NCBI GenBank assembly: GCA_965178125.1
Contig: OZ237767.1
Coordinates: 310,001-374,000 of the forward strand
Length of the DNA: 64,000 bases
Source: Bilabrum cf. latius
Lineage: Eukaryota
Direction: 5' to 3'
Position 1 is the first letter of the stretch; every line of letters begins with the position of its first letter. Below, in pieces: positions 5,785 to 58,524 of the stretch. The position numbers were made by a program, and so were the translations under genes. The notes beneath the pieces are model-generated. The model was not told the DNA's origin, ran no database searches, and saw only the letters and a list, made by a program, of their open reading frames with translations.

Positions 5785-5792
5785 TTATACAA

Positions 5793-7448: not shown

Positions 7449-7506
7449 CACTATATATTATATAAATATATAATGTTTAAGTTATTTTAAACACATAAAA
7501 AAGGTA

Positions 7507-7770: not shown

Positions 7771-7861
7771 TTTTGTCTATATACTATATATTTTATTTAT
7801 AAGATATTTTTTAAGCCTCAATGTATTATATAAATTAAATTATATAAATTAATCAACACAA

Positions 7862-10621
7862 TCACTAATCTAATCTTAAATTTTCAGTTTTATAAAGATT
7901 AATATTATCATCGTTATACTAAAATTCATACACTCTTTCAAATAAGTCTTTCTTTTTCGTAAAACTAACCTTTAACTATCTTACATCCTCTTTTTTCGCC
8001 TTACCCCATTTTGAACTTATACATCCAAACAGCTATTTATATAATTTAATTATTGCTCCGTGTAATTCTATATCCGTCTCAATAGGTTTTTTCATTCTAG
8101 CTCCAACCGTTTCAACATATCTTTTACCTATTTTTCTATATTTATTAGATATTTCATTTTTACGTTTATAATTGATTTCAAACTTACTTAATCCTAAAAT
8201 CTATAACATATCAAATAATAAAACTATCTTATTTTTATCACTTTTAAATTTTTCATCCTCAAAATCACGCCTATCTTTCAATTCAGATAAAATAGTAAAT
8301 TTATTTTTTCTTTTAAAGCTAGCATAATTAAAATAATTCTACAAACTATAATTATCAATGAGAAACTCTTTTAACTATTCATCAATTGATTCTTTAGGAA
8401 TTCCTAATATATTTATTCTTCTCTAGATGTGTTCATTCTCATACTCAAATTTTTCAATCTTTTCATTCTTGAGTTCCTTAATGATTGATGCTATCTATCC
8501 ACCTTTAATTTTTGTTGGTAATTGTCTATCAACCATAACATTAAATCCCCTATTTCTTAATATTTTCTATAAATGAATATATTTATTTGTGTTATACGTA
8601 TCAACTTTATAATTATATAATCGTTTTAGTGGAATATATATTTTAGTGCTCGCATTATACATTAATTTAAATAATCTATCATCATCATCATCTTTTAAAA
8701 TATCATACTCTAATCCATTTTCTTTTAGGCATTTTTGTTCGTATTGTTCTAATGTTCTATAAATCTTACAAGAAGCATTAATTTCCATCTATAATTTACT
8801 ACAAGCATCACTCATTGATTCATATTCAGGATATGTAGATTGAACGCATTCAAAAAAGATATTTATATAAGATGGGTTTCTACATCTTGCTAGCTACTGT
8901 ATCATTTGAGTAGGTAATATAGTTTCACCTTTGAAAAGACCATAAACTGGTCTCTCCATAGTGCTATCTAGCCCGTAAATCACCTTCGGGCTAAAGATTA
9001 TCTTATCATATTTATCTAAATCAATTTCTTCACTAGGTAATAAATCGCTTGTAATCAATTTTATATTTTCTATTCCATCTTTACATAACATTTTATGAAA
9101 TGTATCCGCATTCTTCTTACTATCACAAGAGAGGATAAATTTATCTTCCGCTTTTAATTTATCATAAAACTCCTACTAATCTTTATCAAAATATACATCT
9201 ACACCATTGAAATGTTTATAAATATTCTTATAATATCTGTATTTAACGCCTGTACTCTTCACAAACTTCATCGCAACCTAGCTAATATCAGCATCTACAG
9301 CAATAAACTATTTACAAGTTCTAATCATTTTCTGTATCATAAACAGAACTAACACGCGGTTATTATTCATTGTTGAAGAACTTAAAATGTGTTCTATAAT
9401 ACTATTAAATTCATCTAAGAATACTACATATTTTGAAAAATCATAATTTACAATCTAAGGTAAGCTTTCGGGTGTAATAATAAGGCTCTAACCAAAATCA
9501 AATTTTTTATTCTAGTAAAATTCACATTCTACCCCTTCATCTTTAAAACTTCTATACTATTCACTCCCTAAACAAACCCTTGAAACTATAGAGATAAAAG
9601 GCGTCTTTATCTATTGTATATACTTCTTGAATGCTGTGGTCTTTCCAGTTCCTGTATCACTTTTTATAATGTAATTATGGTCATACTTAAAAAATCTTTC
9701 AGGTTTGTTAATATCATCTAATTTGGGTTTATTAATTTCAATGAATCCATCTACATTTTCTATATGAGGTCTATAAAAACATTTACCATAATATTTATCT
9801 TTTAAATAAAATTTTACACTGTTATCATCATTTTTGATAATCATATTAACAGTATTAAATGTTTTTAGTCTATCAAAATGATGAATTGAATTCCAAACTT
9901 TCATATTATTCACGTAATTATATTTTTTCCCGTTTTTACTCCAATCATTCCATTCTTTTTTAAATCCTAAATATTTACTTGCTAGTGTAGCTTTATACCA
10001 ATCATTAAAATCATCTAAATATTTATTATTCAATCTATTCAATATAATTATCCAATCTTTACTTTCTAAATTGAAATTTAATAAACAATTATTCATATCA
10101 GAGCAATTAACCTCGTTCTTTGATAATGCTCCTTTTATATTAGATTTCTTAGATGATTTAATAATGTAATCACAATAATAATTATATAATTCTTCGGGAC
10201 ACTTCTTTATTTTAGAATCGTTAATAACTTCATATTTATCATAATTTATTGAGCTGGGAGGAATAGGAACATATGCCCCGTCATTTCTTATTTTGATTTG
10301 AACATCCTTATTCTTGGTAGTAAGAATATTCTAATTGTATTCAAAATATAAATGATACTGCCCGTTTGCTGTCTTAATTGTTCTTGTATTGAATCTCTTT
10401 ATATAATCCTTTCCAAATGCTTCAATAAATGAATGCTCTTTAGACCATTTCTATACCTCCAACTCAAATATTGTTATATTATTCTATTCTCCTGTTATCA
10501 TTCCTATATTCTAATTTTTAAACTTCTAAGGGATAACTTTATTTACATATTTCCAATTCTTGACATCGGGGACATCCTGATTATGTTTAAGTGGAAAAGT
10601 TATTAACTATTTTGATGACAT
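7862..10621 (-). CDS. PrimPol + PriCT-2 + SF2 (UL9/origin-binding-type) helicase (919 aa)
   Basis: Single frame with ~27 TAG (manual count), ends TGA. PrimPol motifs NIGMITG, TANGQYHLYF, RNDGAYVPIPPS. PriCT-2-like DW..W..WS..KY..W. Helicase motifs SDTGTGKTT, IVSR, LDEF, DAD, SPKVIYGLD, Q(TAG)LARCR. Confidence 0.9.
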
Positions 10622-10691
10622 ACTATATATTTTATAATATATATAATAATTTTATTTTTAAGCCACGATATAATTATTAAAAACGAAAATT

Positions 10692-11453
10692 TTAATTATA
10701 AATTTCCCTGAGTCTATTATATTCCTTTTTGTAATCACAGGACAAATAGACTTTATAATTCCAAAATTCAGCTGTATGTATATCGTCATTATCGTTAATA
10801 CTAAAATTTCTTTTGATTTTTGATATTATAATTTGAATTTTTCTAGAACTAAAACGATTTCTAAGCGATTCAACGTCTGGTAAGTGTGAATCACCAAATT
10901 TAATTATATTCCCATTTACTATAACCTAAAAACGATAATCTCCATCATCCAACCTCTTTAAATCTCCTATTAGTTCTAATTTGCTCTCTGTTTCTTCCTC
11001 ATTATCACTATCCGCCACAATCTAGTCCTGTTCAGTATTTACACTTTGACTATCATCACTATCATCTTCAACACCTTCGTGAATTATTGCGGTCTATCTA
11101 ATTAATTCTGGCGGTTGTAAATCATCTACATCATTATAAATTTTATTATTCTGTGGTTTATAGTCATTAAATTTATCTAGAATGTATGTTTGCTTAATTT
11201 CAACCTGATCGTTGTTGTTGTGTTGTGTCTTCTGTTTCTCTTCTTTCTTGGGCTTTTTCACGGATTTTTTCTCTTTAATATCACTAACTATATTTTTATT
11301 AATTAATTTAGAGGTGGAAAACTTACCACCTAAATCTACATACGTAGTAATGGTCTCTAGAATTTTCTGCGTGCTATCTGTAATATGGTCTGTAGCCTTA
11401 TGAATCTGCTTCATTAGGACGGGATTTTCAATGACATAATTATTAAAGTTCAT
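10692..11453 (-). CDS. Hypothetical viral protein, possible degenerate Tlr6F-like C-terminal domain (253 aa)
   Basis: ORF 11094..11453 continues through TAGs to TAA at 10692-10694; C-terminal YRFQVIVNGNIIKFG...HTAEFWNY. Confidence 0.75.
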
Positions 11454-11479
11454 ATCTATAATACTAAGTTATAATTTTT

Positions 11480-12529
11480 GAGTTTTAAAAAAACGCTTAG
11501 AGGTGGGGGGTCATGTGGGGGTTATCCCTAGCCTATAGGCTAGGGTTATGAAGGGGGGTATGTGATGTATAGGCATAGATTAATACTTTAAAACATATAC
11601 ACCCTTAATAAAGGCTTAAACTTTAATATTAAATCCTGTAGGTTAGACCCTCATATTTCCTAAGAAATGCTGGACTCCAATATCCAGATTCAGGTTCATT
11701 TTGACGATGACGAGTGTAGCGAGTTGCTGTTGCGCGTTTGTTCCATTTGTGAAGGTATAAGCGAGGATAAGGGGGTATAATGAAGGTAGTTTAGAAGGTT
11801 GAATAATGGAGTCCCATAAAGTGATGGAATTTTTGGCTAGAAAATGGCTAGAGTCCCATAACACCTTCACAAAATTGAGAGATCCACGTAATGAGAATTA
11901 ATACTGAACTTGAATATTCACATTCATTTTTATTTATACATATACTTTTAAAGACCAACATTTCCTAAGATATACTGAACTTCAACTTCAATATTCATTT
12001 TCATTTTTTTTTTAATATTTATACATTCATATCATATATTTATTATTTATCAATATATTCTTTTAAATTAAATACTATTATGACCCATTATTATCATATT
12101 TAATATTCTATTTAGCCCTAAATTACCATTTCAAGGGGTACCCCTTAGATAATCATTCTAAATATATAATTTTATTGCTTTACCTTCATTAATGATTGAA
12201 CTTGAATTAATTTTATAAATTTACATTGAACTTTAGAAGGTCAAATAATCACCCTTCTAAAATGAAGGGACTATTTTATACTAAAACACCAAAAGTCCCA
12301 TTTGACCTTCTAACAAAAGCCCCGGTACAAGAAATGTTATAATATACTATATAAATAGCATTTTTTGTACTATATCTTTTATAGAGATTACCTTGACTTT
12401 TGGAGCGACTAGCGACAAAAGGAGTGAAACGGACTGAAGAGCTTTAGCTCTGATGGACTGGAACTATTGATGATGTTAATCATCCTTAACCGAAGGGAAT
12501 AAATTTATTTATTACCGTAGCGGGGGGGG
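11480..12529. repeat. Non-coding viral terminal region (probable terminal inverted repeat)
   Basis: No convincing ORF. Perfect palindromes at 11526-11545 and 12133-12146; inverted 14-mers at 12233-12246 / 12300-12313; G8 run at the GC boundary. The partner repeat cannot be seen in this window. Confidence 0.55.
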
Positions 12530-12547
12530 TTGCCAGGCCTGCCGGCG

Positions 12548-12591
12548 AGAAATACAGAAATACAGAAATAAATACAGAAATACAGAAATAC
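12548..12591 (-). repeat. Octamer tandem tail (AGAAATAC)n at the retrotransposon 3' end
   Basis: About 5 copies visible; two more at 12801-12815. Confidence 0.9.
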
Positions 12592-13024
12592 ATTGTTGGG
12601 TTAAGTTACCGAACCCGCCACAGATGCACCATATCTCAGGTGATCACCTGCAGCGGTAGGAGCCCTCATAAGAGGACTACAAGACCCCCGACCCTTTCAG
12701 ACCAAAGGCCCCCCATGTACCGGCCCTGATGTTGGGACCTCCCTTTGTCGCCTTCAAGCCCTCCTTCGCAGCAGTCCCGGAGCCTTTATTTCGGATATCC
12801 GAAATACAGAAATACATTGTTGGGTAAAGATTCCACAAGCACCCAGATGCACCGTTGCCCCCGAAGGAGTTCGAGTGATCACCTGAATCCAGAGGAGTCC
12901 TCAAACAAGGACTACAAGACCCCCGACCCTTTCAGGCCAAAGGCCCCCCAATCTCAGCCTACACCGCCGAGTCCCCTTTATTCGCCATCAATGTGGTCCC
13001 CCACAAGCCCTCAGCCTGATGCCT

Positions 13025-15500
13025 TCACAGGGAGAAAGCATACAGGTGCGGAGCATGTGCCCGGCACAAAGCGCGGTCCAGTCCCACATCAGGGTCCCCT
13101 GCCGAGACCCACCATTTCCTCCTCCATGACCGTCTCTGCGTCTCACGGTCCTTCAGAGAGGCTAGCATGCACGCGCTCATGCCTTTGGCCCATTGCCTCT
13201 CTATGTCCCTTAGCAAGCCGTGGGGCTTAAACATCCGTCGCTGTAGCCGAGCGTTCGCATTGGTTGCCGCTATCAGCTCTTGCGTGGCCGTGGCGGCAAG
13301 AGCAGCCGCCGCATCGCCTCGCATCCACTGCCTGCACGTCAGCTACTCCTGCTAGCGCAGCTGGTTCCTGATCACCTGCACCACTCGGTTGGCCAGCTCC
13401 TTGACAGCTGTACGTTCCGATGACCGCGCAATCGTACGCTCTATCCGAGTGAGTGCGTCTTCGACGATTGGCTTGGCCCTGCTGGTGCGCTCCAGCTTCT
13501 CGTCCCAAGGGTCCTGAGCGAGAGCTGTCTTCGCCCATGCTTTCCGGAGAGAGGCAGGGGACCTCCCTCTATTCTGATCCGCATCATCGGGTTGCCACGG
13601 TCTCGTTCCGGCATGATGGTCATGCTCGGCCCGCTCCATCTGCTCTACCGCGGTGCCCATCACTTGAAGGTTGGGCGTGCCCTGTTGCGGGTTATTGTCC
13701 AGCTCGGATGCGCAGAATTCGTCTTCCTTGGTGGCCGTATTCCTGCACCACCGCTGCTGTTGGCATGGCTCCTGGTCCGAAGGCATACCGTCCCTTCGTT
13801 GCGTACCGGTTAAGCATGACCACTCCGAGCGCAGCTCTCTCCCGGTCCCAATCCGACAGTGCCGGATCGTGCGAGCATCCCAGGCTCAGGCTTGTGAACG
13901 ATCGGTCAGCAGCTCCGGATTTGGATTTCCTCCACTTTGTGACTTTTTTTGCAGTCTCCTGGCATCCCATCCAGTCCTTCGCGTCATCGATCCGTTGGGT
14001 CCACCCTGCCATCTTGATCCTGAATCCCAGTGCCAGCGCGGCCCCGAGTGGGCCTGTCTGTACTGGTGGTCCCTGCAGGAATCGGCCCTGGTGGATGAAC
14101 CTGGCCGCAACATCAAGGCCCTTCTTCGAGGGACACTCGATCAGGTCCAGCAGGCCCATAGCAACACGCCCTGCTGCCGATGCCGTCAGCAGCTCAGTGT
14201 CCATCGCGAGGTTTGGCACGTATCGACCGCCCATGGTGAAGGGCCTTACCTGTGTCGATCCGCTGACAATCATCCAGCGCGTATCCAGCAGGAATTTGTC
14301 CAGCATCTTGAGGACTTCCAGGTTCAGTTCCATCCCATAGAAAACTTGGGAACCATATCCTAATCCTGACAAGGTGTCCCATCCTGTTGCACATGCCGCT
14401 GCCTCTGCTCCGTAGAATGCACTCGTGATTGCTCCTGCATGGAGCAGCTGGGCGTGCAGGGAGACCGCCCAGTTGCCGTTCACCGCCGCTCGTGTGATGT
14501 CCCTGGCCGCCCGGTACGCCATCGCAATCCTCCTGCGTACGTGGGGTGCCATATCAATTACCCAGATGTCTCTCGCCTGCGTCAGCCCAGCTACTTCATC
14601 TGGGCTGATCCGTACCGGTTGGGTCGAAATGAGTAGACCGAGGTACGGGTAGGATGAGGCAAGTGGGATGGTCCACTCCCCATCCGTCTCTCCCGCGTCC
14701 GCTGCTCTGCATGCGACGCCCTCTGGCATGTCCCCAGGAATTGAGTCCCGAGCGTAGCCAAAGGCCATGATCGCTGTCTTGGTTCCCTGGCCCGATGCTG
14801 TCAGGGGCTTGATTCCCAGCTACATGCCCGCAAGTGCAAACAGGCTCTTGACTAGCTTCATGACCGCCACTGCTTCGTTCCAGTTCGACGTCAGTGCCAC
14901 GTAGTCGTCTGCGTACCCGACTTGTCCACATTCAACGTATCGTCCGGTGTCGGTCACGATCCTTTGATGGTGCCCGTGCTGGAGCCTCTCTTTCCGCAGC
15001 GTTTCCAGGAGAACCCCCATCAGTACCAGGAAGATGGTGGGAGACAGAATCTCGCCCTAGGGGGTGCCCGCCGTCTTCTGCACTCTGGTAGAGACCCTCC
15101 TGGTGAGTGGGTCTCGAACGCGGATGGCCACCTGCATGCGGGCCATGAGAAAGCGGACCGTCTGGCGTCCCCATCCTTGCTCCGTCATGATGGCCTCGAT
15201 GATGTTCCACTTGCAACTGTCAAATGCCCCTTTGATGTCAAAGAATACCAGAAAACCTCCAGCACCCCTTCGTTGGGTAATCCATTCCATCACCGCTGAG
15301 TAGGCCTGCTGGCAGTTCTTGCCGATGCGAAATCCGGCCTAATCCTGGCCGAAGAGTCCGTGGTTTTCGCAGTACCACATGACCTTCTGGTTTGCGATGG
15401 TGCTCACGACCTTCGAGAGGGCCGAGGTCCAGCATATTGGCCTGAATTCGTCGACTCCTGTGACTCCTGTGCCCTGCTTGCGCTTGGAGACCGGCGAGGC
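13025..15500 (-). pseudogene. Non-LTR reverse transcriptase ORF, truncated and probably frameshifted
   Basis: Motifs FRPI, Q(TAG)AGFR, FFDIKGAFDS, GTPQ(TAG)GEILSP, YADD, YPYLG. The RT frame stops at TAA 13692-13694; a different frame continues to TGA 13025-13027. Confidence 0.85.
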
Positions 15501-15831
15501 ATGCTCAACGAGTTGCGTGATGATATATTTTAAATCAGACCATTGGCAGCCACTGCACAGCAGAACAAGGCGTCGTACAAACAGCCCTCCGGCCCCAGTT
15601 TCAGGTACAAGAGTTCTGCACAAACAGGATTTTTCGTAACCGTTTCAATTAGCGGGAATCCATTACGGACAAAACCCTGTTATAGTAGTGATTCGATCAG
15701 AAACTGTGGATTGGAAGCTCGCGGCAAGCATGAGACCTGAACGCCGTGGACCGTGCGCAGCCCATCACATACGCAATTGGTTGGGTACCACAGTTTTCAT
15801 CATTTCTATTAGCTGCTTGTTTTGTAAATCT

Positions 15832-18800
15832 ATGCAGGTTTCACACCCTGGGTGAGTCCCAACCCACTTGCTGATTTCATCGTGGCGTCGTCAATCCGTA
15901 AATTTCGATGAATCAAAGTAGAGCTTTGCAGTTTCTGATGCTAACTATGCACTACAGATCAATAACAGGTGGGGAAAATGCCGCCCGAAGGCTGGAAGCC
16001 GCAGCCTGGTCGCGGAACGACGGCGAAGTACATGGATGGGACAAACTATCGAGCAGGTCGGGCAACTTCCACGGTACGCTCGAAAATGGTGACAGTTTCG
16101 GATATAGCATCACTGCACTTGGTGATCTGGATGGAGATGGGGTTGGAGACATGGCAGTTGGAGCACCACGAGACGACGATGGGGGGTAGGATCGTGGCGC
16201 GATTTGGATTCTGTTTTTGCTCTCTAATGGCACTATTAAGGACCATCAGAAGATCTCCGATACGAATGGAGGATTTTATGGGCAGCTTGACGACGGTGAC
16301 TGGCTGGGTGTGTCAGCAACAACGCTATCTGATCTGGACGCGGACGGAACACGTGAGCTTGCAGTTGGAGCACCACGAGACGACGATGGGGGCAAAGATC
16401 GAGGTGCTGTATGGGTACTATTCCTTCGAGTCGATGGCTCTATAAAGCGGTATGAGAAGATCTCCGATACGAACGGCGAGTTTTCAGGGAACCTGGACAA
16501 TGATGACCATCTAGGGTGGTCAGTGGCTGGTCTGCCTGATCTCAACGGAGACACAGTAGCTGATCTAGCTGTTGGGGCAAGGAATGACGACGATGGATGT
16601 GATTTGAACTGTGGTGCTGTGTGGATACTCTCCCTGCGTTCCAACGGAACGGTTCGGGGACACAAGAAGATATCAGAGCTCACAGGTGGTTTCGCTGGCT
16701 AGCTGGACAATCAGGACTAGTTTAGCTATTCCCTGGCTTCACTGTCCGATCTGAACGGCGATGGAGTGGTGGACTTGGCGGTGGGGGCAGTACAGGATGA
16801 TGATGGCGGCACCGACCGAGGAGCCGTGTGGATTCTGTTTTTGCGACCGGATGGCTCAGTCAGGTCGCACCAGAAGATCTCTGACACGGAAGGGGGCTTT
16901 TCGGGACAGCTTGGCAACGATCATAATTTCGGCGGTTCGGTTGCTTCACTTGCAGACCTTGATGGCGATGGAACGGTGGACCTTGCTACGGGGGCACTGC
17001 GAGATAATGACGGGGGAAATGCGCAAGGAGCAGTGTGGATCTTGTTCCTGCACTCAAGCGGCACGGTGAAGCGGCACTAGAAGATTTCCGACGCGCATGG
17101 CGGGTTTGTGGGGAGCCTGGACGAGTTGGATATGTTTGGCGCATCCTTGGCATCGCTGTCTGACCTTGATGGGGACGGATCGGTTGACATGGCGGTGGGG
17201 GCAGTACAGGATGATGATGGCGGCACCGATCGAGGCGCCGTGTGGATGCTACAGCTCCATAGCTCAGCCCGCAGCGTCCTCCCCGCGCCTGTCCTCAACG
17301 GCACCTACACAATCGATCCTGCCCTCCTGTAGGACCCGTGGAGCACAGGCACAGAGGCACACCAAGTCAACGGATCCATGTACTCTGCCGCATCTGCGAC
17401 GATCTCTCCAGACAACAGGAGGATAATCCTCGCCCAGACGGGCTGTGCTTCCTCCAGCGCCAGGCTGCCCCTCGGGTACCTGCAGGGCAGCGTGCGGGTG
17501 CAGCTGCCGTACAACTCGAGCATGAGTGGGGCAGAGGCGGAGGAATTCCACTTCATGCTGGTGGCTGGCGGCCGATTACTGGATTCTCACCAGGCTATAT
17601 TCCCAGTTGAGCGAGTGGCATGGGCTGACCTGTACGCAGAGGGACTCAACGGTACTATGCAAGTGGATCTGCTGCTACGCTACTGGCCCAGAAACGCGAA
17701 CGTGTACGGGTGCTACGGCAGGGCCCCCCACCTGCTGGCTGACCCCCCTTTCCCTACGACGTCCTGCGGGGGCCCGGTGGTGCAGTCGAGGTGTGCCATG
17801 GTGACGAGTGGGACCAACTCGATCGAGGTGCGCCTGAAGGAGGACTCTATCCGGGGGTGGGCTTTGGCTCCTCAAAGCTTTGTGAACATGTCACTTGTGG
17901 ATGCGCGGGAAGTTTGGGTTTTGTTCAGGTTTGGGAACGTACCATGCGTTGGTAGCCCGAAGGGCTGTCTAGCTGGAGGACATGCTCTAGGAGGGACTTG
18001 CGATCGTGTAGCTGCACTCATGAGTGGCATTGCGGAGTGTGTGATCGATGGAGATGGCAAGCTGCAACTCGGGTCGGACACATAGAGCGACGTGCTGCTG
18101 CAGCAGGGAACGGGGCCGCATGTTCAGTTGCGGATTTGGCAAAAGTGGGATGGCACGGTGAAGCGACACCAGAAGATATCCGACACGCAAGGCGGCTTCA
18201 CGGGGCAATTAGATGACAATGATTTCTTTGGTAGTTCTGTCACATCTTTGGGTGACTTGGACGGTGATGGAGTATCGGACATGGCAGTGGGAGCATCGTC
18301 CGATGACGACGGTGCGTCGGGTGACAGCAATCGAGGGGCTGTGTGGATCGTGTTTCTGCAATCGGATGGCACGGTGAAGCGACATCAGAAGATCTCCGAC
18401 ACGCAAGGCGGCTTCACGGGGGCTTTAAGTAATGCTGATATGTTTGGCAGATCCGTTACATCCCTGGGTGACTTGGACGGTGATGGAGTATCGGACATGG
18501 CAGTGGGAGCATGGTCCGACGACGACGGAGGAGACAGTGTCAGCAATCGAGGGGCTGTGTGGATCTTGTTTCTGCGATCGGATGGCACAGTGAAGCGACA
18601 CCAGAAGATATCCGACACGCAAGGCGGCTTCACGGGGCAATTAGATGACAATGATTTCTTTGGTAGTTCTGTCACATCTTTGGGTGACTTGGACGGTGAT
18701 GGAGTATCGGACATGGCAGTGGGAGCATCGTCCGATGACGACGGTGCGTCGGGTGACAGCAATCGAGGGGCTGTGTGGATCGTGTTTCTGCAATCGGATG

Positions 18801-40456: not shown

Positions 40457-40596
40457 AATGCTACTTATACTCTCTGGACGGAAAGAATGCTCGGAATTGC
40501 GTTATTGGTCGCTTCTGATCGGATCAATGTTGTGCGTACTTTCAGAAGATGCAATAAATCAATTTCGGTATTGCTTCTACCAAACCCGGCAAAGGA

Positions 40597-43536: not shown

Positions 43537-45105
43537 AGTGCAGTGGTGAGCACAACAGCTTCGGCGAGGAATATCTGCGCTTTCGAGTGCATCCACACCG
43601 TGTCATTGGCAGCCAAGAGCACACTTCGTGAATCTGGGTAGCATGCAAGTTACTTTGTGGGCACGAGCAGGATTGCAAGGCTAGGTGGTAGGAAGTTTTC
43701 CGGCAGCGCCACTCATTCGTACGGCTCATTGACAAACATTTGACGCCTTGTCTGATAGAACTATGGGCAGTGGGCTGTTACAGTAGCTTTGAAACCTTAT
43801 TGGAAACAATGGTTCTACATCCACGCCGCTGTCGCGCCCAAGATACGCTTGCCCTTAACCGATAAGCAGCCCACCAAGCATTGCAATAACAAAGCATGCC
43901 ACACGATGTGCACGTACAGAGGTCTGCTTATTTTGAAGCATATGTTCGTTGATTCTCGAGTGTGTTAGACACCGATTCGAATCTAAGTATTCGACAAAGC
44001 TACGCGGTTTTGCATTCTGTCCGTCTATTGGACTTAATTGCTTTAAATGAAGCCGCCCCAGAGAGTTATCGAAACAACATACAAACAAATAGCGCTAATA
44101 GACACTACAAACGCCAGTCATGCCTGGCTGTGAGCACAAATAGGATTTCGATCTGATAAGGATCTGTCGAAGTTTCGCAGCGTGCAATGCCAACCAAGCG
44201 TAGGATAGAGAACGAAATACTAAACCGTCGTCGAATTTATGATTTGAATCACATAGAAGCTAGAAGAGCGTGTTTCTTTAGCAGAATTGGGGTCAAACGC
44301 ACAGGTTTCTGCAAACTGAACTCGGGCGCCAATAATCGTCCGGATTGCCAGTGGGATGCCCCCCTGGGTCGGTATTGCCGATAACAACTCGACATTACCC
44401 ATAGCTGCGGTCTCAGAATTTGTTTCACCTCGCTGATCAGGGCCAAACAGTCAAAAACCAGATAAACTTATCCACAGCATGCGGGATCGTTCTCGGCCGT
44501 AACACGCACAGGCAGTCTGAACCTGTTTGGAGCTCCGCACAGTACTACAGTTCAAATCCAACCAATACATACTGAATTCAATCATGCGTTCATAAGTCCC
44601 ACTTTGGAGCCGGAGCAGCAATATCGCCAGCTCGGGTCTGTCATCAGAGATCTTCCCACAGCGAGCACAGTGGACTGGCCACATCTCTCTGTAGTCGACA
44701 CGGCACGCCCCACAATTATCACCTATCGAGCCAGGTGGGCATTTCATTATGTAACACGGGAATCGCATGTGCGTACCGCACGGTTCATGAAGACTGAGGC
44801 ACCACGGGTTGCATTTTTGTGTTTGGCGCCGCGGCGGCGCGACTGATGTGATCGCTTTTTGCACACACTGCAAGCATTCTTGCGACACATAGCACGTCAT
44901 TGTCGGTCACATCACGCTCATGTAGAAGTAAAGCATTTGATCGCTAAAAGGTTACCGATAGAAGGTTGGAAGTACGTGATATCTACGCAGTTCGCGGTTG
45001 ACTGAAATTTTGGGGAAGTCAAATTGGAGTCGTCTTGAGCTATATAGGAAGTTAGGAGCTCGTTGCCCACCGTGATCACCAAGATCTGATATATCTAGTT
45101 CTAGC

Positions 45106-47838: not shown

Positions 47839-48689
47839 TTCCGCATCTCTGGTTCTACTGCAAGTGGACGAGCATCAGATCTCCGGCAGACGGCAAAGCA
47901 CTGGCAGCAGCTTCACCCTCACATGACTGGGTTGAAGTTGAGTCAGCGCCTCCACTTGGAGACTGTGTGCGCCTCGTCTTTTGCGCGGTGTTACCGTTGT
48001 GCTGGCGTGCCAGCATGAGGTCTCTAGAACACATCTATTGGACCGCACCGCGGATGCCGGTCCCTCGACTGTCACCACCGTAGCTTCTAGTATCGAGGGC
48101 TTCTCCTCGTGTGCACTTGGAATATCACAACTTGTCAGTGAATACATTATCTGCAGAATGCAGGATGACAAGCCACAGAGGCAGAAGTGCGGGCACATCA
48201 TTTTATTCAAAAGTAGCGTGATGTTTGAGCCACTGATTTACCTGTCGGCAGTGCTGGGCAGCGCTGCGTGTGCTTGGAAGCTTTTGGGCAGCAGGCGGCG
48301 ACCATCCTGACTGGTACAATGGCAATAAGCAGATTACGTTAAGTTACTACATTTTCTTCAGGAATCGATCGGAACGAAGCCGCCCCGTCAGTTGTGAGCG
48401 ATCTAATTGTCGCACAGAATGTGGTATAATACAGCTTAAACGCCGAGACAATCTCTGGCAAAGCAAAGCGCGTGTTAGGCGCTTGTTTCACCATCCAACG
48501 CAGCCAAGTTACAACGCAAGGCGTAGGAGCAAGCAAGCTGCGGTTAGCCATTCTGGTTGCATGCGCTGCTAAAGGTAGGTTGGGCTTACGGATCCTAAGA
48601 CAGCCTTGCCTCGAAGCGTCGGATACTGCAGGCCCACATTCTTAGCGAGCTATTCGCAGCCTCACTTGTGCTGAATAGAGTGAGCTGGT

Positions 48690-51600
48690 ATGGACGTGAA
48701 CTATCAATTGAGTTCGCAGCACGGCGGAGCGACAGGCAGACATCAAGCAGTGGCATCAAGTTTAGCACGCAGCCCCTCAACCGGGATTGACGCGAACACT
48801 GTCCTGTGGGCCACTACTAGATTTCGGGTGCCGGCAGACCCCCACATAAAAGCAATAGAGCTTGATTTAGATCGTTCTTTTCGCCAGCTACAGTGGGGGG
48901 CAAGTTCTTCAGCCGTAGTAAGCCGTGCAGGTAGTGGTAGCGACGCTGTCAGCGCAACGCAACACGTGTAGACTTCACCTACTGACACTGAGCGCTCATC
49001 AATAGAAGAAAATGTGCTTGCTGGGCTAACTAAGTCGCATTGGCTATCCCAGCAATAGAATCTCGTCGGAAATGCAGCGGGAACTACCCTGGCAGCACCG
49101 GGTGACATGGACAGCCGAGGTCCATTGGTCGGGTGCTCGGCGGTGGATAAGCAGGATTATCCAGAGCCATGCAGCGCCGCTCCGCCAGTATACTATGTCC
49201 ATGGCAGGTCTGTAGGTAATTCTAGATCAGGTGCCGGTTTTGGGGCTCCTTACGTCCCGACTGTCGTGCCAGCAAACATCAAGTCGTCTGCAGCGCACCG
49301 CGGCTCTCCGTGGGAGCTGCTGCTCTAGTCCTGGATTGCGTCACAGAGTGCAATGCAGCAACGTCTTAGTAGATACTCTATGTAGGGCAGTTGTATTGAT
49401 CACAGCGACTTCCAACTCTCAGCAGCTAGGAAGAAAGGCGATGGTTCCTCCCCGGGCCAGCCGCCAAGCATGGCGAGCAATACTTCTAATGCTGAAGGGA
49501 GCGCATTGTTGGCGTCTGCTAATGCATCAACACCGCCCTCCTGGCTTCATTAGCACGCAATACACGTTGGGGGGGGTAACTAGCGTGATTTCGCAGGCAT
49601 GCGGTCAGTTCCAAAAATGTCCGGCGTCGCTGGCGGGCCTTTATTCTCGCCCGGTCCAGGATCGAGATCCAGATAGAGAAGCGCCGGGAAACAACGCTCT
49701 GTAGATGCTAGCGCTGCAGCTATGCGGCAGGGGTGTGCTGATCAGCGGGACGCTCTGCCGTAGAAGCGGCAAAGGCCAGTGGATTTCAGCGCTGCAATTG
49801 GCTCGCGGAAGCCCCCTCTTGACCTGCATGCCCGAGTTGCCCGAACACCCAATACTTAGCATCCAAAAAATGTGGGAGGCAGGTAGTCGCGTGAGCAGCT
49901 GCTTGCAGCCGAAACGCTCGCGCTCGGTTTGTCTTAGGACATGAGTTGGCAGGCTGCAGCAAGTGCTGGCATTGGCAGCGCATCTTTGCACCAGCGGCAA
50001 GGGCACGGAGTAGATGAAAACAGTTCGTTCGGGAGAGGCTATTTACATAGTCTGGATCAGCGCGTGCTGCCTGACGACTACCCGTCGTAGGGGGTTGACC
50101 CCATCAAGGGGCGCGCAGCATGGGGGATTTCCCCCTCCGCCTCTAGAGGTCCTCCCCCCATGACTGCAAGGGAGCAGTCATGGGCGGAAATGAAGCAGCA
50201 GGAGTGGATGCGCTAGAGGCATCCCCTGGCATCCCACTGGGAGAAGGGGTCCGAGCGCATGCAGCTGGCCCACCTGACGCATGGCCAATGGCAGTGGCAG
50301 CAGCAACAGCAGCAGCAGTGGCAACAGCAGTGGCAACAGCAGCAACTACATCAGTGGCAGCAGCAGCAGCAGCAGCAGCAGCATCAGCAGCGGCGGCGGC
50401 AGCAGCTTTGGCTCATGCAGCGGATGCAGTCGGGAGGCCTGATGGGTCCTGCATCCGGAGCCGAATAGCCGGTGCGAGTAGACCGACCCCTTGGCACGTC
50501 CGGCAGTGCTGGTCGTCCTGGCGTCAGACATGCGAGCCACAGCGGTGGTCAGAGTCACCACAGCGGTGGTCAGAGTCACCACCAGCACCATACAATACGG
50601 GAGGGGCTTGGGCGAAGTGCTGCGGCTGGTGGACCGCTGTGGTCACCCGCTCCTGCGTTTGGGAGTACTGCCCCAGGCGCACATCGCAGTGCCAGTGCTA
50701 GTGGTAGTGATGCTGGGGAGGGTGGTCACACTGTGCAGACCCCTTCCTACCCAGTACGTGGGGCTGTGGATGGGGCTGTGGGTGCCGGCACGGAACGGCC
50801 ATCCAGCGGTTCAGCAGCAACGGGCCTCCCCGGGGGCATCTAGGCCAGGAGTGTGGGCGAGTTCTAGGGAAGCCGGCCCCTGCGAGGCGCGCGCAAGGCA
50901 GCGCAGTCGGGTGTACGGGCCCGCAGGATGCAGGAGCGTAGCGGACTAGCGGAAGGAGAAGGAGAAGGAGCAGAAATAGGACTGGGTTGCGATCGAGATG
51001 GGTCGGGTGCGAGCTCTGGCAAAGAGCATGGCTTCAACTCTGGTGACTCTGCTCAACCAAAGTAGTACCGAGGCGTTGAGCGTGGCATTGGAGTTGAAGC
51101 CAGCTGGGATAGAGTCAACGGAGCTGGTGGGGGTGCGAATGAATTCGAGAGCCGGTTGGGAGCGGTAGAGGCTGCTGGTGCGGTTGGATTAATGCAAAGC
51201 AGTAAGGTATCCTCCTCATCCTCGAGCAGGAGCAGCAGCAGCAGCAGTGGTGCCAGTGCTAGTTCCTCTTCCGCTGGAGCCGGTATCCCGCAGCCTGCCA
51301 GCTGGCCGAGAGGATCGACCAAGAGCAAGTGGTTCTCCATCGTGATGAACTCCACCCGAGGGGGCGCAGACAGGGCAAGTGTGCGCCGCGAGAAGCAGGC
51401 AATCATCAGGAGGCTCTTCGACGACTTTGAGTTTGCGGCGCAATGCTCGCTGGAGCTGCTGCGCCGGGGGGCAGGAGGCACTGTGAAGGTGGCTGACCCC
51501 TCGGATTAGCCCGAGTCATTGGCCAAGATGGCCAGCACGCGCCGGTCGGCTGTCCGCTTAGTGCGCGGCTTCAATTACAGTGACATGGAAGAGTGGACTG

Positions 51601-51983
51601 AGAGCATGACCCACGGGTGCTGGGAGGTCAGAGCCGAGGACCAGCCCGCGGTACCGCAGCTCAATCAAGCCAAAGCATCTCGGGAGGCTTCTAGCGAGGA
51701 GCCAGGCACGCTGCCTTTTGTCCCGCCCGATCCTGCCGGTCGCCAGGTCCGCGGCTACCAGCTCTATATCGTGTTCCGGCCCGTTGGCGCCACCACCCGG
51801 CGGCCGAAGCAGTACCGCACTCCGGTGCAGCGGGGCGTGTCTGTGGCCAAGCTGCTGCGCGGTGGGACGGAGCGGAGGACGTCCATCTGTGCCAAGCTGA
51901 GGAGCGTGACCTCGCCGGACCCCAATGGAAACGAGGCAGTCTTGCAGTGGGTGGACGAGCTGCTAGACTACAAGGTAATCTAA
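48690..51983 (+). CDS. Unknown protein, paralogue B (1,097 aa; poly-Gln tract)
   Basis: Continuous frame with TAG=Gln; ends TAA; shares WF..VM.S.R, RLFDDF.F...CS.ELLRRG and QLYIVFRP blocks with paralogue A. Confidence 0.8.
51716..51925 (+). repeat. 210-bp direct repeat, copy 2
   Basis: Matches 47571-47780. Confidence 0.92.
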
Positions 51984-52829
51984 CCGCTTGCATGCGGCAG
52001 TCGGGGACCCGGGGTTGCGTAGATGGCGACACCTGCGTGAAGCGGCCCATCCGGTTAGCAGGTTCACTCGACATGGGATTGTCGAGGCGAATACTTGCAG
52101 ACTATCCTTTTGCTTTTAGCCTCAACATGGATCTATCCAACTGATTCGATCTGGATCTGGATGCAATTTAATTCCTCGGATCCGTTCTGGATATACTTTA
52201 GACATGTTCAGAAGATCTCACCCACCTAGCAAATCGAGTTTTCAACAGTTGGTAGCCCGCACACGAAACTTTACACATCTGGCTGCGTGTTGGCCTCTGG
52301 TTGATACCGGGTATCCGGGTATACGCTTCCTGCATAGCCAGGTTGGAACCGATTACAACAGGACTTAGCCTGGACCTAGACCCTACGGGAGGTCGAGAGT
52401 GCAGTCCAATGCTACCGTTGCCACAAGCACTGCCTGCCAAAATTATAGCGAGGGTGTACCTATGTTACTTGAATCCACTATATCTATCTGGATCCATTTC
52501 GGTTTCGAGGAAAAAGCTCAATGCCTCTGATTGCAGCGGTAAAGAAGGATTTTGGATCGTTGGTCCTTCGCGCGTGGCGGCCCGACCTTGTCTAGCTAGA
52601 TCTAGCTACTACCTATGGGATCACACGTCTGCTCCTGCACCTCGAGCGGGCCCTGCGCCCACCGCGCGACCTCAATCTCAGAGACCTTGCAGGCCTCACC
52701 AACGTAGTGCATAGCAGGGAGATCCGGATGGTCGCAAGAGTGCGCTTTTGCCGATTTTAGATATCATAACTGACCTCGTCTCCCTTTCTCGGCACGAAGT
52801 CCCTCATATAGTCTGAAAGAATGGTTGAA

Positions 52830-54520
52830 TCAATACACGGGACAGTATTTGATCCAGGCCGGGGTCCCATCAGGCAGCGGGTACTGGCCTTGTGCGTGAG
52901 TGGCCTCTGCCGCGGCATTGATCGCACTCATCACAGACACCTGCTGCGGCTTGGCCTGGTCCCAGATGTCGACCATCCCCAGGGAGCGCATCGCACTGCC
53001 ACTCATCGCAGGGTGGTCCACCCATCGGTACTTCACGTACCCTACGACCCAGGGCTGCTCCACCGCCTCTACGAGCGCGAAGGCCCCGTTGCACTGTGCC
53101 CTGTCGATCCACGAAAAATTTGCGGCTGCAGGCTCGCCGGGAACAGGGCAAGGGAACCCGCTGACAGCCGGGTTCTCGTAGTCCGGAAATTGCGTGAAGT
53201 TGCAGCACTTGAGTGGTATGGACGGGTCCGTGACCTGGTACGGGCACCCGCTGCCCTCCCATGCGTACTGCGATGCGTGGCAGGTGTGGTGGGGCTTGGG
53301 CGCAATGAGGATGCTGATCGATTGGCATCACGCTGACAGCGAATGCGCGAGAGCATCAGATAGGGGTACTGCGCTCGGGTAGGGCATCCGATCGGAGCAT
53401 GCGGTCACTCGTGCCTCACCTCTGCGATTAGTACCGGCAGCTGGGTGACGTCCCATGCCAGCTTCAGTCTTGCGGTCATGTTATACCTGTAGTTGTCGAT
53501 GGACACTACGTCCACAATCCCGATCATGCCCCTGTACACCGCTTCGTGCCTCGGGGTGGCAAACTTGCTGCCGAGCATGAGGTGGTTGCTGTCTCTCTGC
53601 CTCACCGCACTGGTTGTCGCGTTGAAGTACTGCCGGCTGTACTCCAAGAGGAAATCGGACTCGTCCTCGGCGAACTTGTCGCTGCAGAGAGCTAGGCCTT
53701 TCGCCGTGGTGAGCTGCCCGAGCAGCTGCTCCGATGTGAGATGCTCGCCCAAGCCCCACGCCTCCCCAGCGGCCTGCACGCTTCCGTGCTTTGCAACCGC
53801 CAGTTCCCACGCCTTGGAATACGTCGCGTAGGAGGCATTCAGGGACAGTGCGTACTGGAACGTGCCGATGTTGAGCTGCTTGGACGCGGGCTGCGGTGCT
53901 GCGGTGCCCTGCTACCCCAAGCAAGCGGCTGGCGGCCAGTGCTCGGGCTGCCCGCGCGCCGCCGCCCATCCCAACTCGTTGTCGCTGTAATAACCCACCA
54001 TCATGCGGTTGTTCTTATTGCGAGGGGCGACGGCATCGGCCTGCGCGTCGACGTGGGAGAGCCAGAGAGGCGACCAAACGTCCGGCATGTGCGAGAGATC
54101 ACCGAGTGACAGGTTCGCAGGGAGATGGTACGAAGCCTCGAAATCCACGCTGTACGGAAAGTTGCCTTCATCGGTCTAAAACTCGGGGGTGGCCCATGCG
54201 CCCAAGAAATTGAATCCCCACGAGCGCAGGCGGCGCCAAACGCTCTCTCGAAATGCCGGCTTCCCAATCGGGTCCCCATACCGCGCGGTCGTGGCGTTAA
54301 AGTACGGACCGATATCGCCTTCGTTAAGACCACCGGCGTTCGCACTTGTTACGCCTCGAAGAAACATCTTCTAATTCGTGCCTGGCTCGAGGAACCACCA
54401 CACGCCGTTAGAGTCCTTTGCAACTCGGAAGTATCCCTCCTATCCCACAACATCAGAAAATTCAGCCGCCAAGCCCAATATCACGCATGTAGTAAGTACG
54501 GCAAGGCGAATCATAACCAT
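52830..54520 (-). CDS. Secreted clan GH-A glycoside hydrolase, GH50/beta-agarase-like
   Basis: Signal peptide; GYFRV..GVWWF, RLRSWGFN, VGYYSDNELGW, D.NHLMLG.KF, DVVSIDNY, PVLIAE|Y. Intron 53268-53419; TAG readthrough; TGA stop. Confidence 0.8.
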
Positions 54521-54663
54521 TTATCGATTATGAATGCGCAAAACTGCGATTCGACACTGCACATTTCGGGCGCCGGAACCTTAACCGGAACTGCCGACGG
54601 ACTCTCTCGCCCACCCATGGATTCGCCGCGCTTGCGCAAGTCAAATGAAATCTCCATCTGTAT

Positions 54664-56965
54664 TCACGTCCTCGCTTTCTTGGCAGGCTGCTCCTCCTCT
54701 ACGTCCCCGCCACTTCCACTAAAGTGAGCCCCCTACGCCCTCGCTGCCTCTCTCCACGCCTCCCCAAACAAGGTCCCCAGGGCAGCAAGCACGCCCTCCA
54801 GACCCCCAATGGCTGAAACACCAGGTTGACTGTCGAGTCCAATCCCACCGCTGGGAGCAGGCAACACCCCGGCCGCCCGCCCCTCATCGATGGTCGCAGC
54901 GAGCACCTCGGCAAAGTCGCATCGGTCCTCGGGCGACACGCGAACTAGGCCCGGGCTCGACGTCGTGTGGGGGGCAGCCCCCGGTTCCTCACTAGGGAAC
55001 AGCGGCGGGTCTCTACCTGCCGATGGGGCCGCAGCCTCGACCTCTCCGCCGATCTCCACGCGCAGCACCCTAGCACTCGTCACACCTGGCATCACCACAA
55101 CGAGTCGGTTCTGCGCGGCCCACACGGCCGCGCAGCCGGTGCAGGGCAGCGGAACCACCGCCCCGATGCGCAGCGCCCGCCCGGACGCCCCGCCTACCGG
55201 GTCCGACCCCCCCTCTGCTGCTGCAGCCGATTCTTTCGCCTCCCCTAGCAAAGCCTCCAGCTGGCTCCTCAGGTCGATCACAGCGAGCCAGTACCGCCAG
55301 CCGCCCGCCGGTCCTCGTCCTGCTCCCTGCACCGCAGTGCGATACACCAGGGCGGCTCTTGTTCCCCCGGGGCAAATGTCCATGCCCTCGATGTCGAACT
55401 CCTGCAACCGGAACTCAAGATCTCCGATCGTGGAGGGCTTGGTCTTGGACGACTCTGCCGATCCTGTCGCTGCAGCTGCAGCTGAAGCTGAAAAAGACGA
55501 GGACGAGGAGGATGAGGAGGGAATGGTGGCAGCAGCAGCCGGGCTGGGCGCAGATGAGGCAGCCCTCTTGGACCCCGCCTGTTCCCCAGCCTGTTCTCCC
55601 GCAATGGGGACCCTGGCACCCCCAACACTCCCTGCCCCGCGCGGGGGCTCATGGACACCCCCCTCCCCTGACCCGAAAATGACCGTGTTCTCATCCGCCA
55701 GGTCATACCCGAACTGCCCCCTGTCGTCTGCAAGGGCGGGAGACCCAGGCAGCACGGCCCGTCCCACCTCCGTCCCGGCAGGAAGTTCGCCGACACACGA
55801 CTGCAGGATCGATCGCAACGGGTCCTCTTTCTTGACCTTTTCTTCAACATCCGCAGCACCTGTACTCCCACCCACCGTTGCCGATGCGCCTTCGCTGCCG
55901 GCTTCACCCGCAGCACCCGCAGCACCCGCCCCAGCATCCTCGTCGCGGACACCCACGAACCACACGCGCACCGTGCCGTCGGCAGAGGCGGTCACGGCCA
56001 ACTGGGCCGGGGCCTGCGCCTAGCGTGTGACGAGTGAGGTAGAGTCATCGGCCCCAACGGCCATGGGCTCAGCTTCGGATCCCGGGAGCCGAAGGAACCT
56101 TGCCGCGCACACGCGTGCCATGTGTCCCATGAGACAGCTCTGAATTTCGTGCCCAAACGGCAGTGCGATGCACCTCACTCTTCCGTCTCCGTCGGACGAC
56201 AGCGTCATGCGTCCGTCCGGGCTGAAATCCTGCGTCGCACAAAAGGAGACTAATCGGAACCTCGAAGCAGATTATGCAAGCACAATAAACGTCGGAATCG
56301 TTGCAATTTACATGGGACGATAAGCAGCACCAGGCTGGCCCAGCCTTCGCTGCTGGACGACACGCAGCGACTTCAACTGGTAGCAGCGTGCGTCCTCCCA
56401 GTTGAACGGGAATGACACGGCGTGCAATCTCTCACGACTTCGGTGAGGACACCCCCAGTGTGGCCATACAGCACCTTTTGCTTCCCACCGATGTCGGTGT
56501 CTCGTCGGAGGCAGAGGTTGCCAAGCTTGTCGCCTACCAGCACAACTGAGGTCGGACCAGCGCCCGGGATGGCGACTCTTCCGCCGCACAGCGTCATCGC
56601 GCGCCGATGTAGCTTAGCTTGGCCGCCCTCTGATGGTTCGAGCGAGCCTTGGGCAACGACTGAAACTGTGCCATCCACGTGCGCAAGAACTACCTTGTCG
56701 TTTGGCATGCATGCCAGCGCTGTCAGATCGTTGCCAGCTGGAACTCCAGCAATTGCTCGGACTCTACCTGATACGCTCGTTGAATCTATACTGCGTGCGC
56801 AGAAGACCCTTACATGAGACAGGCATAAACTGAATCGATCATTTCACAGATGCGAGCAGAGCCGCACGAACCCACTCACTCTGAGAGCTAAACAAGCGCG
56901 TTGCCGTGGCCTATGAAGAGTCCACTATCGTCAATGGATCGACAGGCATGCAAAATGCTGAACAT
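54664..56965 (-). CDS. WDR4: tRNA m7G46 methyltransferase non-catalytic WD40 subunit (WDR4/Trm82-like)
   Basis: VGDKLGNL, LYGHTGGVLTEV|DFSPDG, SSDGDGRVR...EIQSCLMGH. Introns 56791-56879 and 56230-56435; ends TGA after TAG readthrough. Confidence 0.8.
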
Positions 56966-57102
56966 ATTCACAAAACTTGAGAATTTCCTCGTTTCTCGCA
57001 CTATTGATTATTTCCAGTGGTTGCGTGCTCTTTGTTCCCGAAGTGCAACTGCTGAATTTGCTCTGCAACAAGGTCATTCGCGCTTCAGTTGAATTAAACA
57101 CC

Positions 57103-58524
57103 ATGGCACAACTATCTTTACAGGCCCTATAGGCGGATGGTTTTTACATGCCCGCGGACTACGACCCCAAGAAGCACGGGAGCATTGACAAATTCGTTGG
57201 TAGCAAGGGGAGCTTCGGAGCCCGGGCAAACAAGCTGCATCTCGGCATTCTAGTTGTTCGGTTTGAAATGCCACATAACGTGTGGTGTCTAGGCTGCGGC
57301 GAACATGTGTCGAAAGGGATTCGATTCAACGCAGAAAAGAAACGAGTGGGCAAGTATTACTCGACCCCCATCTACGAGTTTCGAATGTCTTGCAGGTTCT
57401 GCCAGCACCCTTTTGTGGTTCGGACAGACCCAGAAAACAACGATTTTTCGTTCGAAAGCGGCCTGAAACGAAAGGCCGAAGGAGCATCGAAAGGAGTAGA
57501 GGAGGCGGCCGCTCGGCCGGGTGAGGCAGAACGCGAGGAGCTGCGCGGTGACGTGCTGTACAGCCTGGAGAGCGCCATTCAGGACAAGAGACGGGCCGAG
57601 GAGACGAAATCAAGTCTCGAAGCGGCCATGGAGCTGGCCGAGGAGGAGGGCGAGGAGGGCCCGTACGAGAGGAACCGGCTGGCGCGGCAGGTCGCTAGGG
57701 AGGACAGGAGGAGGGCGGCAGCGGCCGAACAGGAAGCGGACTCGCTTGGTCTCGCATCAGCCAGCCTGCTTCCCCGCCGCAGGAAGCGAGACATGAAGGA
57801 AGCCAGGGGGGTGGATTTTCTGGGGGATGCACCGGAGTCGAAGAGAAGGAGGGCAATGAGCGCGGCCTACGCCACCGCCTTGCACGCCCCCGTGCTGCCG
57901 CCTTCCCTGCCTTCGTCAACCCGGAATAAGAAACAGGAATCAGGACAGACCGGAACAGGCGAATCGTCGGGTGCTCGACCTGGGCATGCTGTGACCAGTG
58001 GTGTGACGAGTGCAGGCCCACCGGCACCGTCCTCCCAGGGCCAGGGGCATGGGCATGCTGCCTCCAATGCATGCTCCGGGCCTAGACCACGAAGCGACCC
58101 ATCCTCTTCTCCCTCTCCATCTCCCTCATCTTCATCTTCCTGTATGAAACCCAATGGCCCTTCAGGCGCTAGCACAGCACAGGGTGCACCAGCCACCCGA
58201 GGAGCTGAGTTGAGCGGGAGCTAGATCTAGGCATCGGGCGGGGCCGCTGCCGGTGGGTCGCAATCGGCAGACAGGGGCAGCTCTGCATCAAGAGAGTCGC
58301 AACGGGGCGTGCTGGTTGTGTCGAGAGGGAACAGTTCAAGCGCGGCTCGGCAGACCACCCGGGCCGTGCCACCAGTGGATGGGAGCGGTAGGCTGAGGCT
58401 GGCTGCATTAGAGGCGAGAGGGGTCCGGCTGTCGAGGTTCCAGCTGGCTGGGGGCAAGGCTAAGCAGAGGGGTGTTATGAGCAGCGGTGTAAAACTAGTG
58501 CGAAGGAAGAGAAAGAATGCATGA
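57103..58524 (+). CDS. CCDC130: CWC16/YJU2-family splicing factor CCDC130 (DUF572; 473 aa)
   Basis: ADGFYMP.DYDP, RFEMPHNVWCLGC, GIRFNAEKKRVGKYYSTPIYEFRM.C, TDPEN. Extended at both ends through TAG; TGA stop. Confidence 0.92.

Follow-up and report, generated by a model that had tools for sequence, protein, structure and literature searches.

According to published work, UAG alone has been reassigned to glutamine in Iotanema spirale, in Protocruzia tuzeti and in two lineages of phyllopharyngean ciliates (PMC5304391; PMC11687900, McGowan et al. 2024). In the published account of I. spirale (Fornicata; Panek et al. 2017, PMC5304391), UAA and UGA remain stops, UAG was not seen as a terminator, and UAA and UGA occur in frame only inside retained introns. 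The same assignment is the best reading of a stretch of 64 kb listed under Bilabrum cf. latius (GenBank assembly GCA_965178125.1, contig OZ237767.1, positions 310,001–374,000; hereafter the window, numbered from its first letter), where 21 frames with a total of 13,925 codons hold 139 in-frame TAG. The evidence given for Iotanema comes from a transcriptome only (PMC5304391), whereas the window is genomic DNA with introns, a retroelement and a probable integrated virus. In the window, UAG is very probably read as glutamine on cytoplasmic ribosomes, with UAA and UGA remaining terminators, which is the assignment of NCBI table 15; the type of code is itself already known and is not new. A preliminary description of this DNA, made from the letters alone, had called such uncoupled cases rare, citing Iotanema and some ciliates. 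Their rarity stands, but the known list is longer than was given there, with P. tuzeti and the two phyllopharyngean lineages to be added (as reported in PMC11687900).

The window comprises two compositional zones, with a GC content of 28–32% from position 1 to about 12,530 and of about 53–66% over the remainder. The GC-rich host zone, at about 60% GC, contains eukaryotic genes (FG-GAP/TIG, a four-domain channel, uS5, Saf4/Yju2, purple acid phosphatase and Sel1-repeat), and the window very probably belongs to the nuclear genome of a eukaryote with introns and a high GC content. The AT-rich zone is taken up by a virus-like element. Among the frames that contain TAG are the following, listed together with the element itself:

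15902–28738, plus strand: FG-GAP repeat/IPT/TIG protein with a transmembrane C terminus; single exon of 4,278 codons with 21 in-frame TAG, including 16700–16702 and 17078–17080; ends in TGA
29761–37131, plus strand: four-domain voltage-gated cation channel; 8 in-frame TAG, including 33019–33021 in the domain II pore helix; ends in TGA
13692–15644, minus strand: reverse-transcriptase frame (RVT_1) of 650 codons; 3 in-frame TAG, including 15057–15059 and 15339–15341
1–12530: AT-rich polinton-like or virophage-like element, its left end outside the window; 13 frames, 63 TAG among 137 glutamine codons (46%)
7862–10651, minus strand: Prim-Pol/PriCT-2/helicase gene of the element; 27 TAG, 7 CAA, 4 CAG, no TAA and no TGA

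The five in-frame TAG sites named in the preliminary description are all present as TAG on the coding strand: those at 16700–16702, 17078–17080 and 33019–33021 on the plus strand, and those at 15057–15059 and 15339–15341 as CTA on the plus strand, that is, TAG on the minus strand. When TAG is taken as a sense codon, the eight host frames, with 10,460 codons in all, contain 76 in-frame TAG and neither TAA nor TGA, compared with 160 TAG, 72 TAA and 435 TGA in the two off-frame registers taken together. The 13 frames of the AT-rich zone (3,465 codons) contain 63 TAG, again with neither TAA nor TGA, compared with 181 TAG, 414 TAA and 262 TGA off frame. Expressed per frame, TAG occurs 76 times in frame against 80 off frame in the host, and 63 against 90 in the element. 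The coding frames thus show no avoidance of TAG, whereas they exclude TAA and TGA. The longest standard-code piece within the region of the 4,278-codon frame is 588 amino acids; at the off-frame rate of TAA plus TGA, a frame of this length lacking both would arise by chance with P ~2e-52, and the 929-codon frame of the viral primase–helicase with P ~7e-49. The sole in-frame TGA belongs to the channel gene and lies within a GTGAGT..CAG intron (34246–34395, 150 nt), excision of which restores the conserved 'LNLF-VGSVIDSF' junction. TAG makes up 76 of the 549 glutamine codons in the host frames (14%) and 27 of 38 in the primase–helicase gene (71%), and the genes that carry it include those for the channel, the FG-GAP protein, Yju2, the reverse transcriptase (RT), the primase–helicase and the protein-primed family B DNA polymerase (pPolB).

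If TAA also encoded glutamine and stood to TAG as CAA stands to CAG, the expected number of in-frame TAA would be about 296 in the virus and 25 in the host; none is seen in either. Viral frames favour CAA over CAG by 61:13, and this preference, together with the absence of all ~296 expected TAA, settles, for this window, the question of whether UAA and UAG changed together. The behaviour of TAA and TGA at gene ends was examined in these and the following genes:

2–1510, plus strand, cut by the window start: candidate major capsid protein; 9 TAG; ends in TAA
4069–5598, plus strand: protein-primed family B DNA polymerase-like gene; 6 TAG; ends in TGA
5766–6215, plus strand: DUF5872 gene; 3 TAG
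45076–47838, plus strand: gene of unknown function; 17 TAG; ends in TGA, aligned with the TAA end of its paralogue
48684–51983, plus strand: paralogue of the 45076–47838 gene; 18 TAG; ends in TAA

The four gene ends that had been attributed to TAA (1508–1510, 43534–43536, 51981–51983 and, on the minus strand, 60960–60962) do consist of TAA. Among the ends of 25 gene models, 10 in the virus are TAA and 3 TGA, 3 in the host are TAA and 9 TGA, and none is TAG. The host proportion of 3 TAA to 9 TGA differs from the 104 UAA to 15 UGA given for Iotanema (PMC5304391; Fisher P 8.5e-6). Five gene ends are anchored by homology, and all five are TAA or TGA. The ends of the two host paralogues, TGA in one and TAA in the other, coincide in the alignment. 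The viral open reading frame (ORF) at 6206–6499 ends, with TAA, within a few residues of the ends of four relatives. The polymerase ends, with TGA, three residues past its alignment with the protein P0137, which extends to residue 442 of the 444 of P0137, and the capsid candidate ends, with TAA, at the last residue of P0136, a 95% identical copy from another assembly. Common use of TAG at true gene ends, which the preliminary description regarded as telling against the reassignment, is not seen in these five.

The residue read at TAG was assessed from the window's own repeats and from homologues. The site KRH-TAG-KIS of the FG-GAP protein is opposite CAG in 7 of 11 sister repeats, with KRHQKIS among them, and GGFAG-TAG-LD is opposite CAG or CAA in 4 of 11, with GGFTGQLD among these. 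In the channel, VF-TAG-TATGDDW of the domain II pore helix places TAG opposite the conserved Q of 'vfQvltgedw' in the Cav1.1 alignment, and in the RT the motif GTP-TAG-G places it opposite the Q of GVKQG ('vgvkQgdpmsp') of an R2 reverse transcriptase. These four alignments agree with the assignments proposed earlier. The viral genes, being richer in TAG, give the stronger evidence, and the primase–helicase, for which the best 120 of 375 homologues were aligned, allowed a quantitative comparison. Q occupies three of its 27 TAG columns, in 120/120, 111/120 and 78/120 homologues respectively, and across all TAG columns Q is the commonest residue, at 15.7%, compared with 18.2% at the gene's own CAA/CAG columns. 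Log-odds decoding over the 25 well-occupied TAG columns gave +16.3 nats for Q, −2.5 for K and −4.4 for E; as a control, the same procedure called 40 of 43 ordinary codons correctly. The capsid copy P0136 has Q at four of five TAG sites and A at the fifth (P ~1e-6 at the Q frequency of P0136). Its first residue is the Met that comes next after an upstream TAG in the window copy; this suggests that P0136 is the product of standard-code gene calling, in which case its glutamines would be CAA or CAG. In the DUF5872 gene the second TAG is opposite Q in both of two viral relatives, and the third is opposite K. The TAG codons of the two host paralogues fall in gaps or unaligned low-complexity sequence (three gaps; others opposite CCA, GCC and AAA) and are uninformative for the residue, and those of Yju2 fall beyond the segment that can be aligned with solved structures.

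Evidence on RNA comes from a comparison of the window with contigs from four studies over positions 51000–64000; the contigs are assembled, and rare edited forms could escape the comparison. The remaining host genes, most of which lie in this region, are:

52804–54520, minus strand: secreted enzyme-like gene; intron 53268–53419 removed in RNA contigs; TAG at 54440, 54371, 54176 and 53912; ends in TGA
54664–56790, minus strand: WD40-like gene; intron 56229–56434 removed in RNA contigs; TAG at 56020 and 54733; ends in TGA
57100–58524, plus strand: Saf4/Yju2 splicing factor; TAG at 57130, 58222 and 58228; ends in TGA
58659–60700: purple acid phosphatase; no TAG
60960–62100, minus strand: Sel1-repeat gene; intron 61736–61826 removed in RNA contigs; no TAG; ends in TAA (60960–60962)
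62218–63135, plus strand: low-complexity membrane protein; 5 TAG; ends in TGA
39491–40501, minus strand: ribosomal protein uS5 (RPS2); one intron, read by eye; no TAG; ends in TGA

Only two positions, 52665 and 52671, differ between the contigs and the window, and neither belongs to a TAG codon. Contigs of the runs X5 and X7 skip six stretches of 89–282 nt with GT..AG or CT..AC ends, and the DNA run X1 reads through all six; the contigs that lack these introns are therefore RNA-derived. The RNA origin of X5 and X7 is judged from the spliced contigs only; run X5 carries the label 'RNA? (probably DNA)', and only its spliced contigs count as surely RNA-derived. The X5 pieces listed cover 14 in-frame TAG without a differing letter, one X5 contig from which three introns have been removed retains 6 of these 14, and a spliced X7 contig also covers 2 of them. 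Editing is excluded where the RNA-derived contigs cover: the preliminary description had held that transcripts with CAG at these sites would count against the reassignment, and the spliced contigs keep TAG. UAG is present in mature mRNA and corresponds to glutamine; TAA and TGA are absent from the frames and stand at gene ends.

Several observations weigh against this decoding and bear on the accounts that compete with it. The sample is 64 kb from one genome only, and ARAGORN found no tRNA genes within it. The frames were delimited by TAA and TGA, so that the count of 25 ends out of 25 is partly circular and cannot alone show that TAG never terminates, TAG ends being invisible to the method. 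The primase–helicase gene ends in TAG-TGA (7862–7867, minus strand), an arrangement that does not discriminate and that could be an ancestral TAG stop now read through to a back-up stop one codon on. Both points would also fit a UAG whose meaning depends on context, with glutamine inside genes but termination close to the 3′ ends of some mRNAs, in the manner of Condylostoma, karyorelict ciliates and Blastocrithidia. So would the fact that in the RPS2, purple acid phosphatase and Sel1 genes, the three most conserved or most deeply covered, none of 32 glutamine codons is TAG (P 0.008 at the host rate of 14%), as expected of less efficient reading; genes that are conserved or strongly expressed may avoid TAG. 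Such a dual role is nevertheless unlikely: the five homology-anchored ends are TAA or TGA with no earlier TAG that fits better, TAG shows no depletion in frame when compared with the off-frame registers, and the ambiguous codes described in those three groups involve UAA or UGA, not UAG alone. A Condylostoma-type code, with all three stops used in frame as sense codons, was rejected, only TAG being found in frame.

The identity of the residue is also open to challenge. Other TAG columns of the primase–helicase are R in 107/120 homologues, Y in 73/118 and, in two cases, D (74 and 69); at five TAG sites of the polymerase its nearest relative has Q, E, R, E and Q; the four TAG of the enzyme-like gene occupy variable columns opposite A/T, S/R/K/G, F/C or gaps among 14 homologues; and the third RT TAG is opposite K. 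Columns of this kind are usual for glutamine positions, as the CAA/CAG columns behave alike, yet they leave room for some ambiguity, and because several TAG columns are not Q, the assignment of TAG to glutamine is held at high confidence and no more. A residue other than glutamine, such as the Lys, Glu, Leu, Tyr or Ser of further variant codes, or else a mixture, would account for the columns with K, E, D, R or Y, but is very unlikely given that Q leads K by 18.8 nats over the 25 columns, that Q occupies the three near-invariant columns, the channel pore, the RT motif and four of five sites in the 95% identical copy, and that TAG and CAG are one transition apart. That UAA and UAG both encode glutamine (code 6), with TAA unseen merely through high GC, would be in keeping with the rarity of TAA in a host zone of about 60% GC. 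It scarcely merits consideration once the viral frames are included, in which, at about 28% GC and with the CAA preference given above, there are 63 TAG to no TAA, and 10 of 13 of which end in TAA with the next gene close behind; the paralogues that end in TAA and TGA at the same residue argue in the same direction. Nothing was found in favour of an origin of the in-frame TAG in assembly errors, in RNA editing to CAG or in pseudogene decay. Such an origin is extremely improbable: contigs from four studies agree with the window across the region compared apart from the two non-TAG places, six TAG are kept on a spliced RNA-derived contig, and pseudogenes would also collect TAA, TGA and frameshifts, none of which is seen in 13,925 codons. 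Reading UAG as glutamine, with UAA and UGA kept as stops, is supported by the codon counts, the homology columns, the sister copy of the capsid gene, the spliced contigs and the anchored ends.

The mechanism predicted for Iotanema (PMC5304391) would apply equally here. A tRNA-Gln with anticodon CUA, one base from tRNA-Gln(CUG), would read UAG and, owing to a C:A mismatch, would not pair with UAA, and an eRF1 with weakened recognition of a third-position G would cease to compete for UAG (PMC5304391). The eRF1 N-domain motifs reported as altered alongside such codes are GTS, NIKS and YxCxxxF, and the Iotanema protein carries a T32G change in the GTS motif (PMC5304391). The integrated AT-rich element is very probably translated by the host's code and has taken up TAG as a major glutamine codon.

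We read the AT-rich element, from its gene content, as an integrated polinton-like or virophage-like virus. Its replication module is present, with Prim-Pol, PriCT-2 and helicase domains and the pPolB-like polymerase, whose family profile matches phi29 DNA polymerase (E 2.4e-7), and it also holds several small ORFs. The primase–helicase has 375 homologues, many on contigs of 20–25 kb, and relatives on 70 IMG/VR contigs that are mostly ~10–26 kb long with a median GC content of 31%. In a tblastn comparison of 37 frames from the element region with these 70 viral loci, only 4 gave matches. The capsid candidate matches Pfam MCP_V20_C weakly (E 0.0019; 18.1 bits, below the cut-off of 27); no relative of it was found in IMG/VR, and in the protein collection only the 95% identical P0136. 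No packaging ATPase, minor capsid protein, protease or integrase was recognised among the frames scanned with Pfam; the element is cut by the window start, and these genes may lie outside. Relatives of the primase–helicase show little sign of the recoding: 69 IMG/VR relatives have two in-alignment stops in total across their alignments, and in one relative TAG terminates an adjacent gene. The absence of TAA, TGA and frameshifts from the frames of the element indicates that it is kept under selection in this code and is not decaying. The polymerase frame at 4069–5598 aligns only to approximately the last 450 of the ~610 residues of its relatives; the N-terminal part, with the family-consensus 'GG..NDCL..CL' block, is missing or in a separate upstream frame.

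Viruses that follow a variant nuclear code of their host have been described in Streblomastix strix, where endogenous polinton-like viruses use the host's code (Bellas et al. 2023, PMC10120064), and their recoding was read by its authors as a sign of long association (PMC10120064). The Streblomastix host code is given there as code 6, whereas in the window only TAG is recoded, and the extent can be measured, at 46% of viral glutamine codons. The virus in the window is a second kind of example of a virus written in its host's variant code, not the first. In crAss-like and other phages with code 15 (PMC9523058), TAG likewise stands for glutamine; those phages are reported to depart from the code of their bacterial host, whereas virus and host here share one.

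Among eukaryotic nuclear codes, the ciliates with UAG alone reassigned (P. tuzeti and the two phyllopharyngean lineages) resemble the window in that UAA is kept as a stop, as reported in PMC11687900. The rhizarian exLh (UAG as leucine) and Scotinosphaera (UAG as serine) also combine a reassigned UAG with UAA as a stop but differ in the amino acid, and in exLh the ribosomal protein genes are reported to use the reassigned codon sparingly (PMC5304391; PMC11687900). Code 6, found in hexamitin diplomonads, many ciliates, some ulvophytes and oxymonads, shares with the window a change from stop to glutamine one transition away, but differs in its use of TAA, which here occupies none of the 13,925 codons, the AT-rich genes included. 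The window also departs from the somatic DNA to be expected of the UAG-only ciliates in forming part of a contig of at least 64 kb, with ~60% GC, introns of 89–282 nt, an endogenous virus and a retroelement. The chromosomes of phyllopharyngean macronuclei are gene-sized, and to our knowledge ciliate somatic genomes are without retroelement or endogenous-virus insertions; on this general background, a long contig with a retroelement and a virus would not look like a ciliate somatic chromosome.

The window contains little that would place the host, for which the preliminary description guessed a Cafeteria-like flagellate from the style of the GC-rich genes. Rfam gave no matches at gathering score within it, with no rRNA or other usable placement marker, and the scores of uS5 against solved ribosomes are near-equal for all eukaryotes among the matches listed. 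Comparison of the phosphatase exon with the Atlas likewise produced no informative taxa. The literature searched yielded no GC-rich eukaryote outside ciliates and fornicates with UAG alone as glutamine, and no polinton-like virus or virophage with TAG-only recoding; supplementary tables (for example Codetta results, PMC12220804) were outside the scope of this search. The host is likely to be a further lineage with a code in which UAG alone has become glutamine. For the fuller proposal, that it is a GC-rich, free-living protist carrying integrated polinton-like or virophage-like viruses, neither a ciliate nor Iotanema, from a lineage for which no variant code has been described so far, with an independent origin of the code and a virus that has long evolved under it, we put the chances at about even.

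Other features of the window were noted in passing. The retroelement region (12540–15700), which separates the viral element from the nearest host gene, encodes the RT, whose best solved relative is an R2 protein; a run of (GAAATACA)n is located at 12545–12590, and two direct repeats of ~150–200 nt start near 12580 and 12810. The region gave no recognisable domain of a tyrosine recombinase or an endonuclease. Within the FG-GAP gene, the region 18300–19600 contains near-identical tandem double repeats of ~144 residues, in which 72-residue units recur three times with few changes; this likeness points to recent tandem duplication or homogenisation. Compared with Cav1.1, the selectivity filter of the channel has A in domain I ('TFANW' versus 'TMEGW') and D in domain II ('TGDDW' versus 'TGEDW'), and by eye domains III and IV read 'TLSDW' and 'TGDAW', set against what we take to be the reference motifs for these two domains. 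This would give a filter of A/D/S/D in place of EEEE or DEKA. The paralogues at 45076–47838 and 48684–51983 share ~49% identity across their alignable C-terminal parts, and a 246-nt block at their C termini (47571–47816 and 51716–51961) is 95% identical, which suggests gene conversion or strong constraint.

A segment of ~75 nt at 52628–52703 is covered at ~30-fold excess depth by the DNA run and the RNA-like runs alike and has loose ends at either side; it is therefore a dispersed repeat. A tRNA or an Rfam family was ruled out as its identity, and it folds no better than shuffled sequences.

Uncoupled reassignments of UAG and UAA are few, and this case would add a data point on the frequency of the route by which UAG alone becomes glutamine. 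The account of Iotanema, the founding case, states that the tRNA had not been found (PMC5304391); in a genomic case on long contigs, both the tRNA-Gln(CUA) genes and the changes in eRF1 could be read directly. The AT-rich genes of the virus separate a TAA that is a stop from a TAA that is merely rare far better than the GC-rich genes of the host can, and standard-code annotation of this genome would truncate most of its long genes. The element also shows how deeply a DNA virus can be committed to the variant code of its host, which bears on the question of whether code changes limit the host range of viruses. If the proposed reading is true, the genes of this virus would no longer be expressible in standard-code hosts, with TAG at 46% of glutamine codons overall and at 71% in the replication gene, compared with essentially none in relatives, and the change of code would constitute a measurable host-range barrier in a virus–host, perhaps a giant virus–virophage–host, system.

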